Position numbers and translations under genes: made by a program
Notes under the pieces: generated by a model
What the model saw: the letters and a program-made list of their open reading frames with translations, nothing else
The model's database searches: none
Told to the model about the DNA's origin: nothing
Assembly: GCA_963713615.1 (NCBI GenBank)
Contig: CAVQMM010000001.1
Coordinates: 544,001-608,000 of the forward strand
Direction: 5' to 3'
DNA: 64,000 bases
DNA from: an uncultured Chlamydiae bacterium
GTDB taxonomy: Bacteria > Chlamydiota > Chlamydiia > Chlamydiales > JAJFMA01
Shown here: positions 5,288 to 57,787 of the stretch, piece after piece
How the letters are laid out: each line of letters begins with the position of its first letter
How positions within the stretch are numbered: the first letter of the stretch is position 1

Positions 5288-5333
5288 CTCCGGATGTAGG
5301 ATTGGAACCTACGACCAATGGCTTAACAGTCCA
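5288..5333 (-). repeat. att remnant: 46-bp copy of the tRNA-Asn 3' half
   Basis: ctccggatgtaggattggaacctacgaccaatggcttaacagtcca matches 19430-19475 with 2 mismatches. Confidence 0.92.
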
Positions 5334-5883
5334 GTGTGAGGTAAAAATTTACGACAATTTGCAATTCGTATCAATAGGAAAATCAAACACGTAAGACTGT
5401 GGGGGTGTTGTGCCTAGGTATTTGTTCATACCGGAGGTTCTTAAAGGCTGGATCACCTCTTCTAGGAAAAGAGTTAAAACGATTCACCGCTGTGATCAAG
5501 GAGTATTTGTTGTTAATCGCAAACTCATCAATTCCCGTCGAATAAGAAGTAAACTGCTGTGTGGCGAGGGCCGGCTGGCTGTATATGTAGCAACGCTTCG
5601 CTAAGCCATGATCTGCCATATTTTTTGATTCCTACTATCGTTTGCTGTAATTAGTATATTTTCGACATCTAAATCAAATATATTTTTATTACTACAGTGT
5701 TATAATGTATTATATAGCCTTGTGTAGTTAATAAAATGGAAAGGTTTATATGGTTAAAATAGAGGCGTCTGGAGACGGTTCAATCAGAGACTACAACATG
5801 GATGACCCGGTTGATGTTAAAAAACCGTCTAGCAAGGGGCATTATCAACGTTTTGACGCGCAGGATCTTAAGGGCTTTAAGTG

Positions 5884-7614: not shown

Positions 7615-7796
7615 TCAGGCTTGATCGCTTAGGAAACTTTGGCGTTTGCAAAACCTTGCAAGAGGGAGTTTGCGAGCTCAGGATGCATGATGGACCGGGG
7701 ATCAGAATTTATTACGGAAAGATTGGGAATAAGGCCGTAAAATGGTGCACAACTTTATTGACAGTTTCTCGCTTTTCTATCCAGGAACATGGGAGT

Positions 7797-7840
7797 CTCC
7801 GGATTAGGATTCGAACCTACGACTAATGGATTAACATTCC
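7797..7840 (-). repeat. att remnant: degenerate copy of the tRNA-Asn 3' half
   Basis: ctccggat-taggattcgaacctacgactaatggattaacattcc: one deletion and 2 mismatches versus 19430-19474. Confidence 0.9.
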
Positions 7841-8007
7841 GGCGTAAGCCGATAATCTACAACAAGCCACAAGTCGTAGCAATAGGAAAATCAAACACAT
7901 AAGGCGGTGAGGATGTTGTGGCTAGTTATTTAGCAGTGGATATTTGTGAGCAAGTGCACCACGCAATACGGGCTTTCTACCATGAAAGCTTGGTATAATC
8001 TATCGCT

Positions 8008-8211
8008 CTATGACTTGTTTTTGGGGCCGCTTTTTTTACGCTTAGCTGGTGCGATTGGCACCAGCTCATAGCGAAAAGGAGGTCTATACTTTACGATCTT
8101 ACCATTTTTGCTGAACACGAGAGCCGTGTTGGTGCGGATGGCAGTTTCAAGGGCTCTTTGATAGCTTCTTTTATGCGCCTGTAAAACTGCTTCACATAGA
8201 TCATCGTTCAT
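8008..8211 (-). CDS. Small basic protein coupled to the zeta-like ATPase (putative partner/antitoxin)
   Basis: Its start overlaps the end of 8201-8788. The ALVFSKNGKIV pattern is typical of small partners of this ATPase family. Confidence 0.6.
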   Translation of the reverse strand: MNDDLCEAVLQAHKRSYQRALETAIRTNTALVFSKNGKIVKYRPPFRYELVPIAPAKRKKSGPKNKS

Positions 8212-8788
8212 TTGCAGCCTCTGTCAGCTTTTTCCATAACGTTTCGTTTAAAATATTTAATGGACTATTCCCATCCTTCTTCGCTATCAACGCCATCGAT
8301 TTCTGGCTAGAGTTGTCTATTATTAAAGCAGTATCGGCAAGAGGTAGGTAATGAGCCTGGAGGTGCCTGATGCCCGCATAATAACGTCTAATCACTACTT
8401 CGGTAGGCACATGATGCCCACCTTGTTTGACCCTTTGAGAAACCCTTTCGACGGCTTGCTGTGGACTATCAAGCCATAGAAAGGTTAAACTGATTTCATA
8501 ACCCATTGACTTTGCGTGTTGCAAGTGCTTTACGTAATTGACACCAGAGGCTGTTGTTTCGAAGGCAAAGCTTCTATGACCTTCTAAAAGTTCTTTAAGG
8601 CGCTTTACCATCAATTTGCTGGCGGCTAGGGAGACGCTTTCTGGATGGAGTGGTGCGAGGCCTTTGGCAATTTCGTCAGCGTTGATAAAGTCGTAAAGCG
8701 TCTGGTGTTGGGCCTTCATGAGCTCCAGACATATCGTCGTCTTGCCAGCGCCGTTTGGTCCGGCAATCATCAGTATTTTTTTTGACAT
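8201..8788 (-). CDS. Zeta-toxin-like P-loop ATPase/kinase (COG4185 type)
   Basis: IAGPNGAGKTT, FINADEIA, SFAFETT and RVSQRVKQGGHHVP. Confidence 0.88.
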   Translation of the reverse strand: MSKKILMIAGPNGAGKTTICLELMKAQHQTLYDFINADEIAKGLAPLHPESVSLAASKLMVKRLKELLEGHRSFAFETTASGVNYVKHLQHAKSMGYEISLTFLWLDSPQQAVERVSQRVKQGGHHVPTEVVIRRYYAGIRHLQAHYLPLADTALIIDNSSQKSMALIAKKDGNSPLNILNETLWKKLTEAANER

Positions 8789-9822: not shown

Positions 9823-9948
9823 GGCTTGCTTTCCCATAGGGTTTTGTTTTGGTGCACAATTGGTGCACTAAAAGAAAACCTATGCGAAGGCTAGGCCTTC
9901 ATTGGGTCTCTCAAAATGGGCAGGGACTTTTGTCCCTATTGGGCCATT

Positions 9949-10797
9949 GAGGTAATTGCAGAAGTCCGATTCTCCGAAGTCAATTTCCTGAAAATCGGAT
10001 GCCGGTGAAGAGAGAGTCATTCACTTCCCAGGCCCGAAGGGTCGATATTGCAACAGGCCATGGCATCGCCATGGTATATGCCAAAACGGTTTTAGCAGCC
10101 TGTAGGGCTGCCATAAAGCGCATGCATAAATGGTGTTTGTAAACTGGCGTCTTGTAGCAGTCCTTCAGACTGCGAAATCCCTTCCTGGCATATACCATGG
10201 CGATGCCACATAGGCCTCAACCTAAGCCTAACAATCGTATCTCGGCGCGCAGCGCTTTGGAGTGCGGTCGCTTGCGACCGCTTTGGGTTCCTTGCGACGG
10301 TCGTGTGCAACGGCATTACTATAATTCCCTAAGGGTAAAATAGTTAGTACATGCAGCCTTCGACGAATCCATACAATGCCGTTTAGCATTGCCGTCCCAA
10401 GGAACGAAAAGCGGTCGCAAGCGACCGCACTCCAAAGCGCTGCGCGCCGAGATACGATTGTGAAGTCCTAAGTCATTGAGATATAAGCTCAAAAGACCTG
10501 TTAGGTTGAGGCCTATGTGGCATCGCCATGGTATATGCCAAAACGGTTTTAGCAGCCTGTAGGGCTGCCATAAAGCGCATGCATAAATGGTGTTTGTAAA
10601 CTGGCGTCTTGTAGCAGTCCTTCAGACTGCGAAATCCCTTCCTGGCATATACCATGGCGATGCCATGGCCTGTTGCAATATCGACCCTTCGGGCCTGGGA
10701 AGGGAGAAAAGCCTGTCTTTCCAGACTGGATAGTGCCATACCACTTAAGCTCTCGAGAATCGATTCTCAAGGGCTCAAATAATTTTGCAATTACCTC
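9949..10797. mobile_element. 849-bp non-coding MITE built from nested inverted repeats, copy 1
   Basis: TIR GAGGTAATTGCA/TGCAATTACCTC, 4-bp direct repeat CATT on both flanks, and a second copy at 54665-57719. Confidence 0.88.
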
Positions 10798-10840
10798 CAT
10801 TTGTCCTTTAGATATTGGCTAGTTTGACAGCGCGAGTTTG

Positions 10841-11000
10841 GGCCTTATTCACCTTTGCGGTCAGTTTTCGGTCGACTGCAAAAGGATCGTCTGTCGCGTT
10901 TTGCTCCTCGGACATAGCTGGCGCTATGCCCTCGTCACAAACCACGACATCCGACCTTTTTCGTCCGACCGAAATTCTGACCGTAAAGGTGAACAAGGCC
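10841..11000. mobile_element. 160-bp MITE with about 34-bp imperfect TIRs and an 8-bp TSD
   Basis: ggccttattcacctttgcggtcag..ttcggtcg / cgaccgaa..ctgaccgtaaaggtgaacaaggcc, flanked by CGAGTTTG at 10833-10840 and 11001-11008. Confidence 0.8.
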
Positions 11001-11191
11001 CGAGTTTGCTGCCATTTATTGCGGAGGACTGCACCAGGAGTGCACCATGATACAAAAATGGCAGCAGCGGCTCTTACCGCAACTGCCTATAAACCAAAGT
11101 CTCCAGTTACTGGGTACACTTCGAACTTTTGATTGGCTCGGTCTCTCTCAAGAATTTTCAACCCTCTCAAAATTAATAGCTTAAATTTCAC

Positions 11192-11229: not shown

Positions 11230-11574
11230 ATGGAAGAAATCGAAATTGAACTCTACGAAACCGCTACCGGCAAGCGACCCTTTGAGATCTGGATTAAGGA
11301 GATCAAAGAGATCCATACCCGGGCCAAAATCCTGACCAGGCTTGATCGCTTAAAGCTTGGGAATTTTGGCGATTGCAAAACCTTACAAGAAGGAGTTTGC
11401 GAGCTTAGGATTCATTACGGTCCCGGGATTAGAATTTATTACGGGAAGATTGGGAATAAAGTCATCTTGCTTCTTTGCGGTGGCGATAAAGGCTCTCAAG
11501 ATAGGGACATCGTTAAAGCAAAGGAGTATTTGAAGGATTATCAATCAAGGGAGATAGGTCATGGCAAGAAGTAA
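11230..11574 (+). CDS. RelE/ParE-superfamily (HigB-like) addiction module toxin
   Basis: RLDRLKLGNFGDCK..EGVCELRIHYGPGIRIYY..LLLCGGDKGSQ.RDI. Confidence 0.92.
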   Translation: MEEIEIELYETATGKRPFEIWIKEIKEIHTRAKILTRLDRLKLGNFGDCKTLQEGVCELRIHYGPGIRIYYGKIGNKVILLLCGGDKGSQDRDIVKAKEYLKDYQSREIGHGKK

Positions 11575-11845
11575 AAAATATCAAGAGTTTCTACTCGAGC
11601 ATTTAGCGGATCACGATGAAGCCGTCGCGTATCTAAACGCTGCTTTAGAAGAAAGCCTAAAAGGGGATGAAGAATCACAACACCTTTTCTTGATTGCTCT
11701 TCGAAATGTCGCAGAAGCACAAGGCGGTGTTGGTGTATTGGCTAAAAAAGCTCATGTCGGTCGTGAAAGCCTCTACAAAACGCTTTCAGGGACTGGCAAT
11801 CCTAAATGGCATACCTTGTTTCTTTATGTGTTGCCATGGGGCTAA
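11561..11845 (+). CDS. HTH addiction module antitoxin (HigA-like), probable C-terminal frameshift
   Basis: YLNAALEE..ALRNVAEAQGG..RESLYKTLS.GNP. The family-like ending SLCVAMGLNLRLS* lies in a shifted frame ending at 11862. Confidence 0.85.
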   Translation: MARSKKYQEFLLEHLADHDEAVAYLNAALEESLKGDEESQHLFLIALRNVAEAQGGVGVLAKKAHVGRESLYKTLSGTGNPKWHTLFLYVLPWG

Positions 11846-19281: not shown

Positions 19282-19441
19282 GGATCTCTTCGAAAGTTCG
19301 AAATTGTCTGAAAAACGGCAATTGCTGAATTTGGTCTTTTCGAACTTAAAATTGGATGGAAAAAAGCTGTTTGTGACACTGCGAGAACCATTTCTGACCC
19401 TTACCGCAATGTCACATCAACCAGCGAATCTCCGGATGTAG
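19282..19441 (+). pseudogene. C-terminal relic of a large serine recombinase whose stop codon lies in the tRNA 3' end
   Basis: DLFESSKLSEKRQLLNLVFSNLKLDGKKL..LREPF..NLRM* resembles the C-terminal tail of large serine recombinases. The codons LRM* are ctc cgg atg tag of the tRNA. Confidence 0.65.
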
Positions 19442-19501
19442 GATTCGAACCTACGACCAATGGATTAACAGTCCACTGCTCTACCGCTGAGCTAATCCGG
19501 A
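19430..19501 (-). tRNA. tRNA-Asn (GTT), CCA not encoded
   Basis: Reverse strand TCCGGATTAGCTCAGCGGTAGAGCAGTGGACTGTTAATCCATTGGTCGTAGGTTCGAATCCTACATCCGGAG folds as a cloverleaf with anticodon GTT. Confidence 0.97.
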
Positions 19502-24560: not shown

Positions 24561-24670
24561 TCACAATCGTTACTCGGCGCGCAGCGCGAGTGCGGTCGCA
24601 AGCGACCGCATTCCAATGCGCTGCGCGCCGATTAACGCCATGCATGGATTGGCTGCGGCACATAGGAAAT
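24561..24670. repeat. REP-like hairpin of the same family as the MITE core
   Basis: tcggcgcgcagcgc..tgcggtcgcaagcgaccgca..gcgctgcgcgccga followed by ctgcggcacataggaa. Confidence 0.75.
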
Positions 24671-29037: not shown

Positions 29038-29408
29038 AGGTCCTCTCGCCCGTGAATGGTTCCTAATACAACATCTTACGATTCGCTACGTGATCTTATG
29101 ATCCGGCTACATGCATGCAATGACTTACCGCTGAAAGCGCCCAAATAGAGGCGATGTCCTGCTTGTCATTGCGTTAGATGGCATACCCGCCGCGGCTTTT
29201 CTTCGCAACGTAAATGTTTACCTGGAGCGATGAATTATACCGCGTGCGGTTAGATTTGACGCATTCGACTAACGCGAAAACTCCCGCAGTTGTACGATCG
29301 CAATTGGGTTCATAGTTCTAATATTGAATTACTTGCAATCATTCAAATCCGGGGCTTTGTCGCATACGCATTAAGCTAAGAGAATTAAGAATTTTTACCA
29401 CCGGAGGT

Positions 29409-29827
29409 GCATAGAAGCTCGTGGGGCTTTTTTAGGATTTTCACCGCCGAGACACCGAGATAGGAAAGAGAGGAGAGAGGAAGAGGAAAGAATGTTCAGT
29501 TACTACAGACTCTGGACAAAATCCAGTCTAAGGGTTCTCGCAGGAATACGATTCTGTAGTGCCCTTAGACAGGACTTTGTCCAGAGTTGGTAGTAACTGA
29601 ACAGGTCCTCAAAAAAGTTAGATTGAGCACCTGTGCCATTTGTGTGTCTTTGGGCAAAATGCTGTCTAAGGGCTTTACCAAAACGCTAACCCCTCAAGAG
29701 GCCCTTGGGCAGAATTTTGCCCAAGGACACACAAACGGCACATTCTCTCCTAATCCTCTCTCTCCTATCTCGGTGTCTCGGCGCCTCGGCGGTAAAAATC
29801 CTAAAAAAGCCCCACGAGCTTCTATGC
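29409..29827. repeat. Composite palindromic element: outer inverted repeat enclosing two related hairpin modules
   Basis: Outer arms gcatagaagctcgtggggcttttttaggatttt / aaaatcctaaaaaagccccacgagcttctatgc. Inner hairpins lie at 29493-29603 and 29632-29742. Confidence 0.88.
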
Positions 29828-33983: not shown

Positions 33984-34267
33984 GTAGGGGTGTGTTAAAC
34001 TTTTTTTAACGCAAACATACTCTACCAGGGCACGAAGCATTAAAACGATTTTTTGAACTTAGTTTCCTCCCGTCCTCCTTGTGCGCGAGCCTGTGTGTGT
34101 GCCCATAAGTTCATGGGGCTTTTTTAGGATTTTTACCGCTGAGGCGCCGAGACACCGAGGAGAGAGAGGATTAGGAGAGAATGTGCCGTTTGTGTGTCCT
34201 TGGGCAAAATTCTGCCCAAGGGCCTCTTGAGGGGTTTGCGTTAAGAAGAAGTCAAACATACCCCTAC
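33984..34267. repeat. GTAGGGG-ended inverted-repeat element containing half of the 29.4-kb element
   Basis: Arms gtaggggtgtgttaaactttttttaacgcaaac / gtttgcgttaagaagaagtcaaacatacccctac. Positions 34105-34236 match the reverse complement of about 29685-29825. Confidence 0.75.
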
Positions 34268-54603: not shown

Positions 54604-54886
54604 AGGACTAAAAGGACCAAAGAGACATAAAGGATTTGTAAGCATTTGCCTTCTGAGTCCTTTAGAGGTAATTGCAGAAGTCCGATTTTCCGAAGTCAAT
54701 TTCCTGAAAATCGGATGCCGGTGAAGAGAGAGCCATTCCCTTCCCAGGCCCGAAGGGTCGATATTGCAACAGGCCATGGCATCGCCACATAGGCCTCAAC
54801 CTAAGCCTAACAATCGTATCTCGGCGCGCAGCGCTTTGGAGTGCGGTCGCTTGCGACGTAAGCGTCAATTGAGGCCATCTGGCGAT

Positions 54887-56431
54887 TTATTCGGCAGTGG
54901 GGGCTGATGAGGTGGATGAGGCCTTTGCTTGTCGCCTGGCGGCAGCCCAAGCGTCGGGCAGAAGCTCGTGAAGTTTTTGAGAATTATGGGCTGGCAGGCG
55001 CCTCATCACATCCTCTAGGTATTCGTGGGGGTTGACTCCTATCGCGCGGCAGGTCTGTACCAGGCTTAGCAGTACGGCGGAAGCTTCCCCACCCTCCTCG
55101 CTTCCAATAAACATCCAGTTCTTGCGGCCAATAGCTAGAGGGCGTATCGCTCGCTCCGCTACATTGTTGTCGAGACGCGCAAATGCATGTTGGGTGTAGT
55201 TTTTCAGATGGGGAATTAAGCTGCAATAATAGCCTAGAGCCTCCCTTAGATTCGATTTGGGAAGAGCCTTGCCATTAACCAGCCGGTCCTTGATGCGTGC
55301 AGTCAGCTCATCTATTATTGGAGCTTCTTTCTCTTGTCTTATCCGCAGACGTTCCTCTGGAGAACGTTCCCAAGCAACTCTCTCTAACATAAATAGATAT
55401 TTTATCTTGCGCAGTACCCAGCTAACAAATTTTTTATCGCCACCTACAGCGTCGAAAAACTTGCGCCGAATGTGACTCCAGCATGGACACCAAGTGAATT
55501 GCTTCTTATTAGCCAGTGCTTCATAGGCTCCATATTTATCCGAATGGACAACACCTTTATATCCAGCTAGTATTTCCACAGCATGCTTGTGGCAGCGGTC
55601 CGTGCGAAAATGATAGACTCGATAAGGCGGATTTTTTTCCTGCCCTCCAACGATCACCCACATAAAAGCCTGGTGCACCTTTCCCTTACCAGGGACAAGC
55701 ATGTCCACAGGAGATTCGTCCACAAAAACATTGTTGCTGCTGAGCACGCGAGCAATCATTTCTTCATATAGCGCCTTTAAGGCATATCCACAGCGCATTA
55801 CCCACTTGCAAAGTATTTGTCGGCTGATGAGAATGCCCTCGCGAGCTAAGATTTCCGATTGACGAAATAAAGGAAGGTGATCGGCGAATTTTTTCACGAT
55901 CACACTGGCTAAAAGACTTTCATCGGCTTGACAGCGAGGAAAAATGCTATCTGGTAAATCTGCGATAAAAACGCCCTCTTCACTATGTGCTCTACATGCA
56001 TACTTGGGACGTACTAGCTCCTTGACGTAGTAGCTACCTGGCGTATGCGCTATTTTGTGAGTGACTTCTTCGCCAATTTTGACGAGGGCTTCACCCGTTG
56101 TAGGGCAAACTTTTTGATCCTCTGGCAAATCTAAAATACAGCGTTGAACGGGAATATTGTCTGGAAGCGTAATTTTATCTTTGCCATTGCGCCCCTGCTT
56201 AACCCGTCGATGAGCAGGCACATTTATTGTCTCTTTTTGCTCTTCGGAACCAAGATTTTCGAAACCTTCCAGGTAGAGTTGTTGACCGCCATCGTCGACT
56301 ACTTTTTCCGAACGTTTCCCAAAAATCTGACGCCTAAACCATTCAAGCTGCTCCTTGAGAAAGCTATTCTCATTTCGCAGGGAATAAATTTCCGATTGAA
56401 GCTGTTCTAGTGATAGTGTTGAGGTTTCCAT
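54887..56431 (-). CDS. tnpC: IS66 DDE transposase TnpC
   Basis: FGKRSEK, KFADHLPLFRQ, VDESP, CWSHIRRKF, DNNVAERAIR..GRKNWMF. Confidence 0.96.
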   Translation of the reverse strand: METSTLSLEQLQSEIYSLRNENSFLKEQLEWFRRQIFGKRSEKVVDDGGQQLYLEGFENLGSEEQKETINVPAHRRVKQGRNGKDKITLPDNIPVQRCILDLPEDQKVCPTTGEALVKIGEEVTHKIAHTPGSYYVKELVRPKYACRAHSEEGVFIADLPDSIFPRCQADESLLASVIVKKFADHLPLFRQSEILAREGILISRQILCKWVMRCGYALKALYEEMIARVLSSNNVFVDESPVDMLVPGKGKVHQAFMWVIVGGQEKNPPYRVYHFRTDRCHKHAVEILAGYKGVVHSDKYGAYEALANKKQFTWCPCWSHIRRKFFDAVGGDKKFVSWVLRKIKYLFMLERVAWERSPEERLRIRQEKEAPIIDELTARIKDRLVNGKALPKSNLREALGYYCSLIPHLKNYTQHAFARLDNNVAERAIRPLAIGRKNWMFIGSEEGGEASAVLLSLVQTCRAIGVNPHEYLEDVMRRLPAHNSQKLHELLPDAWAAARRQAKASSTSSAPTAE

Positions 56432-56513
56432 ATGCTCTAAATCATATCACAGACCCCCTCTATTATCAAGTATTTTATCTAATAAAATGCACATTGTTTT
56501 TAGGATTTTAGGC

Positions 56514-57095
56514 TCAATGACTACTCTCCAACAACATTAGAAATTCTCGACGATCGATAGCGGAATCTGGAATGCTTCCATTGCGAAAACTTCCTTTTTC
56601 AAGTCGCTTGTACCAGACGGCATGACCATTACCATCCCAGTAAAAGACCTTCACTAGATTTCTACGACGATTTAAAAAAACGAAGTAGGCCCCGCAGGTA
56701 AATTCGCCCGAGAACGAACTGTCAACAAGATTGCTCAAGCACTCAAATCCCTTTCGCATATCGATCGGCTCTTGATAGAGAAAGACACCCTTGTTTTTCT
56801 GATATGACGACCTCAGAGTTTTGCTCGCAGACTTTAGGGTTAGATAGACGCTCTTCTGATCAAGCGAAAGCTTGAGCTCGGGCAGGGTAATGTCTATCCA
56901 ACCCGTCGAGGAAATGTGGTCGGGCGGGCTAACTTTAAAGCGTTGGTACCAGTACAAGAGCTGCTGGTAGCTTATATTGTTCTCTAGGCACCACCTGCGG
57001 CCACTCTGACCGCTCGCCATCCATTGGTCTATGCGTCGAGCCCACTCAGAACGCTTCCTTTTGAAATCCATTAGTATCTCCATGGTTAGGGTCAT
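56514..57095 (-). CDS. IS66 accessory protein, fused TnpA (HTH)-TnpB
   Basis: The N-half W..SGQSGRRWC.ENNIS..LLYW is TnpA-like. The C-half PIDMRKGF..YFVFLNRRR..VKVFYWDGNG..YKRLEKGSF is IS66 TnpB. Confidence 0.85.
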   Translation of the reverse strand: MTLTMEILMDFKRKRSEWARRIDQWMASGQSGRRWCLENNISYQQLLYWYQRFKVSPPDHISSTGWIDITLPELKLSLDQKSVYLTLKSASKTLRSSYQKNKGVFLYQEPIDMRKGFECLSNLVDSSFSGEFTCGAYFVFLNRRRNLVKVFYWDGNGHAVWYKRLEKGSFRNGSIPDSAIDRREFLMLLESSH

Positions 57096-57787
57096 GGAGA
57101 AAACTTAGAACCTCGCGGAATTACGAAAAAGGTGGCTTCAATTGACGCTTACCTTGCGACCGCTTTGGGTTCCTTGCGACGGTCGTGTGCAACGGCATTA
57201 CTATAATTCCCTAAGGGTAAAATAGTTAGTACATGCAGCCTTCGACGAATCCATACAATGCCGTTTAGCATTGCCGTCCCAAGGAACGAAAAGCGGTCGC
57301 AAGCGACCGCACTCCAAAGCGCTGCGCGCCGAGATACGATTGTGAAGTCCTAAGTCATTGAGATATAAGCTCAAAAGACCTGTTAGGTTGAGGCCTATGT
57401 GGCATCGCCATGGTATATGCCAGGAAGGGATTTCGCAGCCTGTAGGGCTGCCATAAGGCGCTTGTATAAATAGCGTGTGAATACTGACGTCTTATGGCAG
57501 TCCTTCAGACTGCGAACCACGTTTTGGCATATACCATGGCGATGCCATGGCCTGTTGCAATATCGACCCTTCGGGCCTGGAAAGGGATAAAAGCCTGTCT
57601 CTCCAGACTAGATAGTGCCATGCCATTTGAGCTTTCCAGAATCGCCTTCTCGCAAAAAAAGGTAACCTTTTTTCCTAAGAATCGATCCTTAAGGGCTCAA
57701 ATAATTTTGCAATTACCTCTTTATGTCCTTTTCGTCGCTTTGGTCCTTTCAGTCCATCCAAGAGCGACCGCACTCTAATAGTTGTCC

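Follow-up and report, generated by a model that had tools for sequence, protein, structure and literature searches.

The stretch of DNA analysed here (the window; 64,000 nucleotides, G000:C1:544001-608000) comes from the near-closed assembly of an uncultured Chlamydiae bacterium, 3.97 Mb in 3 contigs. Positions are those of the window unless preceded by C1, the contig of this genome (G000). An 849-bp palindrome lies at 9949-10797, and its parts are listed in Table 1. We refer to the outer ends as A, to the 126-bp interior of each 148-bp module as B, to the 309-bp centre as C and to the 54-bp REP arm as R; composites are written as A[B], A[C B] and so on. The element is located in a mosaic island of degenerate copies of a tRNA gene and duplicated segments, which also carries a toxin-antitoxin pair of RelE/ParE type and a zeta-toxin-like P-loop ORF (5288-5423, 7796-7931, 19430-19501; 8201-8788; 11230-11845). 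A search of Rfam at gathering score returned nothing in the 849-bp element, and in the window only a tRNA and a TPP riboswitch, both elsewhere.

Table 1. Features of the nested palindrome, of a second family member and of a solitary repeat in the window.
Feature	Position	Strand	Details
Left target duplication	9945-9948	.	4 bp, CATT; outer MITE A, GGAC/GTCC-type repeat context
Layer 1, left end of outer MITE A	9949-10024	+	TIR GAGGTAATTGCA at 9949-9960
Layer 2, left REP-like arm	10025-10083	+	59-bp perfect inverted repeat with 10643-10701; small hairpin, spacer, second hairpin
Layer 2, left hairpin	10058-10074		CCATGGC-ATC-GCCATGG; contains the 11-bp core (10061-10071)
First 148-bp module	10061-10208	+	Core, 126-bp doublet interior (B), inverted core
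Layer 3, inner MITE C	10209-10517	+	309 bp; TIR CATAGGCCTCAACCTAA at 10209-10225/10501-10517
Layer 4, left REP arm R	10231-10284	+	GGAGTG foot and hairpin
Layer 4, right REP arm R	10408-10461	-	Inverted partner, giving a REPIN-like doublet
Second 148-bp module	10518-10665	+	Identical to the first; carries the most frequent B haplotype (35 of 84 extracted)
Layer 2, right REP-like arm	10643-10701	-	
Layer 1, right end of MITE A	10702-10797	+	96 bp; TIR at 10786-10797
Right target duplication	10798-10801	.	4 bp, CATT
Solo partial REP R	24592-24631	-	Outside any wrapper; 95% over 40 bp
Second family member	54665-57719	+	A[C + one variant B]; 4-bp duplication TTTA; carries an IS66 insertion
IS66	54858-57152	-	2,295 bp, in R hairpin (54-bp arm); 8-bp duplication CTTGCGAC
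IS66 ORF, TnpC	54887-56431		
IS66 ORF, fused TnpA/TnpB	56514-57095		

The five repeat layers described in an earlier note on this sequence (12-bp TIR, 36-bp arms, 148-bp modules, 17-bp arms and 54-bp arms) were all recovered in place with 0 mismatches. The 23-bp inverted repeats attributed to each module are also perfect, but they are not the module's own ends and form, with the 36-bp arm, one 59-bp perfect repeat unit. Layer boundaries had thus been misplaced: the 11-bp core TGGCATCGCCA is part of this unit, and it is this core that the inner element duplicates. Only ORFs of at most 88 aa overlap the element; folded as single-stranded DNA, it reached -303 kcal/mol (z = -33 against 20 shuffles). 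Different 4-bp duplications do flank the two copies in the window, CATT/CATT and TTTA/TTTA, both exact. The statement that the element occurs twice did not survive: the 849-bp form is unique, and the second window copy differs in make-up, with one 148-bp module and not two (a variant about 85% identical) and a full right end of 136 bp. The 96-bp right end of the first copy reflects a private 40-bp deletion, the junction of which occurs once in the genome. What the first reading missed was the identity of two layers, the 17-bp layer being the ends of a second, IS231-type MITE (C) and the 36- plus 23-bp layer a REP-like repeat that belongs to a distinct Y1 enzyme, as well as the variability of the family, whose inner modules differ in number, side and orientation across about 100 copies.

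The outer layer is, as proposed in that note, a MITE with REP/REPIN-like cargo, having TIRs, no coding capacity and many dispersed copies. The TIR of A gave 328 genome matches with at most one mismatch, and 96 left-right pairs of A ends of varying make-up were classified genome-wide. A 4-bp duplication was found at 40 of these 96 pairs (shuffle mean 7.3, maximum 17). Copies outside tandem arrays showed 4- or 5-bp duplications in 38 of 73 cases (shuffle mean 5.3), and the missing perfect duplications at the other 35 suggest later recombination between copies. Insertion follows a marked target preference, with GWC at positions -8 to -6 in 158 of 202 unique flanks against a background of 2.7%. 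The target is a 9-bp-periodic GGAC/GTCC repeat, of which 121 triple units were counted versus 2-3 for control spacings. Inverted runs of these 9-mers flank both four-helix-bundle genes of the genome (TIGR02436/TIGR04258), at C1:1850749-1851412 (L366) and C1:3217496-3218375 (L367). This gene layout is REPtron-like, although the protein does not belong to the known nucleases, and the literature searched listed nothing relevant.

Across 301 genomes of the phylum, 30 (this one counted) have the 15-bp A end, with balanced strands in several of them. It also bounds unrelated MITEs of 57-480 bp, many with 4-bp duplications. Chlamydiae and Parachlamydiales MAGs are among the named records listed that bear these MITE ends, and the FabI of this genome passes PRK06300, a model of the chlamydial type; the host is likely an environmental chlamydia. 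In another chlamydial MAG (L085, 2501-2984), the outer TIR surrounds a nested palindrome unrelated to this one and containing a hairpin of the layer-2 type, which suggests that the same design was assembled there independently.

The earlier note had raised the prospect of an autonomous IS with the same ends. Two such elements exist in metagenomes (L174 and L184), and none was found in this genome. They measure 1,447 and 1,546 bp and carry the exact A TIR around a DDE_Tnp_1 + DUF772 transposase; neither has a matching target duplication. The best NCBIfam match of their transposases is IS1182 (NF033551), at 85.9 and 71.6 bits, and because these scores fall far below the 270-bit cut-off we file the partner of A only as IS1182/IS5-like. 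Homologues of the A-type transposase occur in 26 of 300 scored genomes, and chlamydial homologues with a one-mismatch TIR have 4-bp duplications in three of the five cases in which both ends were found. In this genome, DDE_Tnp_1 gave 31 matches, and none of the 11 representative loci inspected has A ends. The DUF772 and DDE_Tnp_1_6 profiles were matched in none of five genomes, nor was the L184 protein, whose best tblastn hit in this genome had an E-value of 0.07. Inspection by eye of 85 ORFs inside A-type ends revealed only IS66, IS1634-like and unrelated genes, and a TIR search of the genome contigs returned MITEs and chance coding matches, with no autonomous IS among the matches listed. A resembles IS1182/IS5-like DDE ISs and MITEs in the TIR that it shares with DDE_Tnp_1 + DUF772 elements and in its 4-bp duplications, but differs from them in its strong preference for GGAC/GTCC repeats and in wrapping varied palindromic cargo.

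The cargo directly beneath A has its counterpart beside one of the six Y1 genes of the genome. A few bases past the stop codon of the intact gene at C1:3243391-3243843 begins a BIME-like array of the 59-bp unit, devoid of A ends, which differs from the layer-2 arm at 3 of 52 bases. The 150-aa product is identified by NCBIfam as an IS200/IS605 transposase (57.6 against a cut-off of 55). By its motifs it would belong to TnpA-Y1 subclass 1.2, defined by DH[IV]H, WQ, Y---Q--HH, about 148 aa and low copy number: it has DHVH, WQ and YIRNQRQHH and is present in low copy number. The accessible text of Quentin et al. 2018 (PMC6006769) presents subclass 1.2 as lacking REPs and as 'generally without' terminal structures, and a term search of the supplements to that paper found neither CCCAGGGC nor GCCCTGGG. 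Homologues of this Y1 were detected in 31 of 301 genomes (this one included), and 29 foreign loci were among the matches listed. A cognate hairpin lies near the gene at 11 of 12 loci with at least 52% identity, at 1 of 17 with 36-45% identity and at 0 of 56 control loci of DDE transposases, the hairpin pattern having been set after the loci had been viewed and the related genomes not being independent. Y1 enzymes of the subclass-1.2 type thus appear, on sequence evidence, to have cognate two-hairpin repeats nearby, both here and at 11 of 12 close homologues, contrary to the REP-less status given in the accessible text of PMC6006769. No homologue of this Y1 was found in viral sequences.

Most copies of the layer-2 repeat lie away from the native array. 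Of 286 arms in the genome, the A-internal spelling accounts for 266 and the native spelling for 16, so that A likely did most of the spreading. We considered B as a MITE of its own with a 23-bp TIR and rejected this reading, since the supposed TIR turned out to be one half of the hairpin of the native REP. Another Y1 carrying the Y---Q--HH motif (L002, C1:3872945-3873400) is flanked by different hairpins of its own.

The third layer is a further MITE, inserted in the layer-2 hairpin. IS231A prefers palindromic targets bounded by G/C. The ends of C fit the signature CAT-------AA--TAA, which Table 1 of PMC2266710 gives, with direct repeats of 10-12 bp, for the IS231 subgroup of IS4. Of 92 pairs of C ends, 70 have identical 11-bp direct flanks, seven have inverted cores and 15 are of other kinds; the flanks fall into five hairpin-core variants that match on both sides. 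The window copy of C is flanked by inverted cores and not by direct repeats. A broader C-type end pattern yielded 228 matches, versus 0 for the reversed control. R is also entered by sister MITEs with C-like ends; of the five pairs of this kind listed, three have 10-bp duplications. An unrelated MITE of 221 bp, from G117, has a TIR identical to that of C and a 12-bp repeat. IS4-family genes were found in 14 of 301 genomes; among 26 loci, two have paired C-type ends and two more have one end near the gene. The former (L372 and L373) are autonomous IS4-family elements in other chlamydial genomes, and the YREK motif (Y-2-R-3-E-6-K) is present in three of four IS4 elements checked. No IS4 transposase in this genome exceeded the cut-off, and viral sequences contained no paired C-type ends. 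In its end signature, 11-bp direct repeats, passenger DNA and lack of a transposase, C resembles the MIC231 cassettes and IS231-subgroup MITEs as they appear in the accessible part of PMC2266710. It differs from them in that its passenger is a REP doublet, its host is likely a chlamydia and nearly all copies lie in one REP hairpin inside another MITE. Other palindromic repeat families occur in the window (29407-29742, 34099-34241, 44476-44591 and 63757-63798), one of which has IS231-type ends, CATA[CT]GC[AG]TTAAGCTAAG, elsewhere in the genome.

The passenger of C, the REP doublet R, leads to a RAYT gene, as the earlier note had anticipated for the innermost REP. This single-copy gene (C1:3256585-3257115; 176 aa) passes NF047646 (83.9 > 80) and is bordered by three R copies on each side, in inverted orientation. 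The 54-bp arm and the flanking repeat differ at 3 of 54 bases. Genome-wide, 257 R-like matches were found, 192 of which were counted in inverted pairs less than 400 bp apart. The foot of R is GGAGTG and not the canonical GT[AG]G tetranucleotide; a REP with the same foot is listed in Table S1 of PMC6006769, and R accordingly fits this variant rather than the canonical REP type. The association of a footed hairpin with a single-copy RAYT in inverted clusters, and its inverted doublets across the genome, are those of REP/REPIN/BIME systems with RAYT (TnpAREP), whereas many R doublets ride in DDE-type MITEs rather than alone, and the foot is GGAGTG and not GTAG. R also contains two terminator-like hairpins and resembles a terminator on both strands; the region has five such hairpins against a shuffle mean of 1.4. 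No sigma-70-like promoter was found in the element region, and one RNA run gave a few contigs of low depth. Gaps that contain A are enriched between convergent ORFs (24 of 67 versus 462 of 2,625; p = 3e-4, with crude ORF calls).

R is in turn the target of larger elements. Thirty-four of 36 IS66 ends and all 13 of 13 IS1634-like ends abut it. There are 18 full IS66 copies in the genome, with fused TnpA/TnpB, and 16 of equal length show 0-8 differences; IS66 therefore appears REP-targeting and recently active. Transport of IS66 by A as a 3,055-bp unit was rejected, the IS66 orientations being opposite in the two copies compared (C1:598665 and C1:938906). Insertion specific to REP palindromes is described in the accessible text of PMC1525189 for IS1397, IS621, ISPa11 and ISRm22, the last of the IS4 family. 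Compared with these cases, targeting here is chained over several levels, largely by non-autonomous elements, and extends to IS66, which has 0 mentions in that text, and to an IS1634-like IS.

We then considered how the modules are combined. Modules of the composite family match about 100 kb, or about 2.5% of the genome. The 96 pairs comprise 34 A[B], 25 A[C B], 12 A[B C], four elements with two Bs, one A[C B C] and 20 partial or degraded copies. B is diverse (39 haplotypes among 84 extracted) and C nearly uniform (mean of 0.96 differences in 309 bp, 40 copies). C is found left or right, in either orientation, next to many B types. This uniformity beside varied B fits recent, repeated insertion of C into older doublets; gene conversion could explain part of it. 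The model drawn from the earlier note is a fixed 849-bp MITE that captured REPs once and moves as a single unit. The window site itself, with intact TIRs and the CATT duplication, agrees with this, as do the 752-bp A[C B] copies, which are 98.4-99.7% identical at different sites with duplications of their own (11 pairs above 95% among 23 compared) and likely did move as units. The census nevertheless largely refutes it, and we regard it as very improbable: two Bs are present in only 4 of the 96 elements, no two of which agree in all three of core orientation, C orientation and right end; the deletion junction of the 849-bp form is found once; and C changes side, orientation and B partner. Gene conversion, too, can make composites nearly identical at sites whose duplications are intact, and can spread C with no fresh transposition.

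The 11-bp cores have a polarity, 280 of 303 reading a>b, a>c or c>b, as predicted by insertion with direct duplication. That the B-less junctions came from random slippage is unlikely, as the core orientation is one-way. Tandem arrays of A[B] with 5-9 units were found at four places (C1:476526-478848, 1173286-1175474, 2273505-2280484 and 2600817-2603417); three have a common 43-bp spacer, and the fourth a 22-bp spacer that is also a contig joint in run X3. At C1:199814, B was duplicated in situ and the copies have common private mutations. These arrays, the in-situ duplication, the strict polarity and the intact Y1 gene with its BIME-like array could also be accounted for if the subclass-1.2-like Y1 recombined single-stranded hairpins at the 11-bp core, adding, deleting or inverting B and C cassettes in a BIME- or integron-like manner on top of transposition by A. 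TnpAREP does cleave and recombine single-stranded REPs in vitro, according to the accessible text of PMC8266576. We nonetheless consider such shuffling unlikely, given that insertion of C with direct 11-bp duplication fully accounts for the polarity, that C has IS231-type ends with autonomous relatives and that in a sister MITE the duplication is of 10 bp, in another target.

Separate counterparts of every layer exist elsewhere (IS ends, Y1 array, RAYT locus), and copies vary in module number, side and orientation. The palindrome is probably a non-coding composite of four nested repeat layers. Different mobile elements likely inserted, each in the palindromes of another, and recombination among the roughly 100 related copies then likely reshuffled the layers. 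For the order of assembly and the enzymes involved, we infer the following. The IS1182/IS5-like MITE A would have captured a REP-like doublet of the Y1 nuclease and spread it through 4-bp-duplicating insertion into GGAC/GTCC 9-mers. The IS231-type MITE C, already carrying the RAYT REP doublet, would have repeatedly entered the layer-2 hairpin, duplicating its 11-bp core, after which composites of A with C and B presumably went on transposing by the ends of A. The transposases of A and C, neither of which was found in this assembly, would have acted in trans. The 849-bp copy itself likely arose when two copies, one carrying B to the left of C and the other to the right of it, crossed over inside C, leaving two Bs and inverted cores. 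Such a crossover between A[B C] and A[C B] places inverted cores around C, as in the window copy, and the reciprocal A[C] arrangement with inverted cores exists in five pairs. Since the window copy has kept its CATT duplication, the crossover would have been of the conversion type or would have preceded insertion. The two of four two-B elements that have direct cores need another route, such as local duplication.

A different origin of the two-B arrangement would be mis-joining of near-identical repeats during assembly, the family itself being real. The abundance of matching modules in the genome and the uniqueness of the 849-bp form leave room for this, and no contig in four sequencing runs spans the whole element. 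We rate it as barely plausible, in view of the near-closed assembly, the matching 4-bp duplication in the flanks, and the distinct private mutations of the three other two-B elements. Contigs of peat and soil runs, which may include the source sample, also hold the modules and several of the individual junction types, at high summed depth. None of the sequencing runs contained half of the locus words, and no empty site of the window copy was seen. The whole element had no match in five related genomes, in a search run without a positive control.

MITEs, REPINs, BIMEs and REP-targeting ISs are already known, as covered in the accessible text of PMC1525189, PMC3733652, PMC8266576, PMC3184786 and bioRxiv 10.1101/2021.07.10.451892. 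The open literature, taken without ISfinder and most subscription journals, held no description of this element or of nested MITE-REP-MITE-REP composites, nor of REPs for TnpA-Y1 subclass 1.2. Within these limits, both the four-system nest and the subclass-1.2 REP association look new, the latter being the most worth a bench test: the published classification gives this subclass no substrate, and the layer-2 repeat is a defined candidate DNA substrate that makes it directly testable. The locus is an uncommonly clear record of mobile elements in bacteria landing in one another, every layer of which can be traced to an enzyme family, and it yields three transposase-target pairs with strong site preference. 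It also bears on how REPs spread, as this REP-like family was likely amplified mostly by hitch-hiking in a DDE MITE and not by its own nuclease. At their share of the genome, the modules are abundant enough to drive rearrangements. The selective logic is likely safe-harbour insertion into intergenic repeats. A more far-reaching view is that subclass-1.2 Y1s form a separate REP system with untagged two-hairpin repeats, that the Y1 actively recombines the 11-bp core, and that the approximately 100 composites constitute a non-coding system of cassette shuffling across the genome, central to a targeting cascade of several levels that starts at the repeats tied to the four-helix-bundle genes; we hold this to be rather doubtful.

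A separate 162-bp MITE lies 42 bp to the right of the element (10840-11001). It is bounded by 25-bp inverted repeats starting GGGCCTTATTCACC and by a 6-bp duplication, GAGTTT. Its ends occur 128 times genome-wide, mostly with 6-bp duplications among the 40 listed, and some copies lie inside ISAs1 transposase genes and inside A elements.
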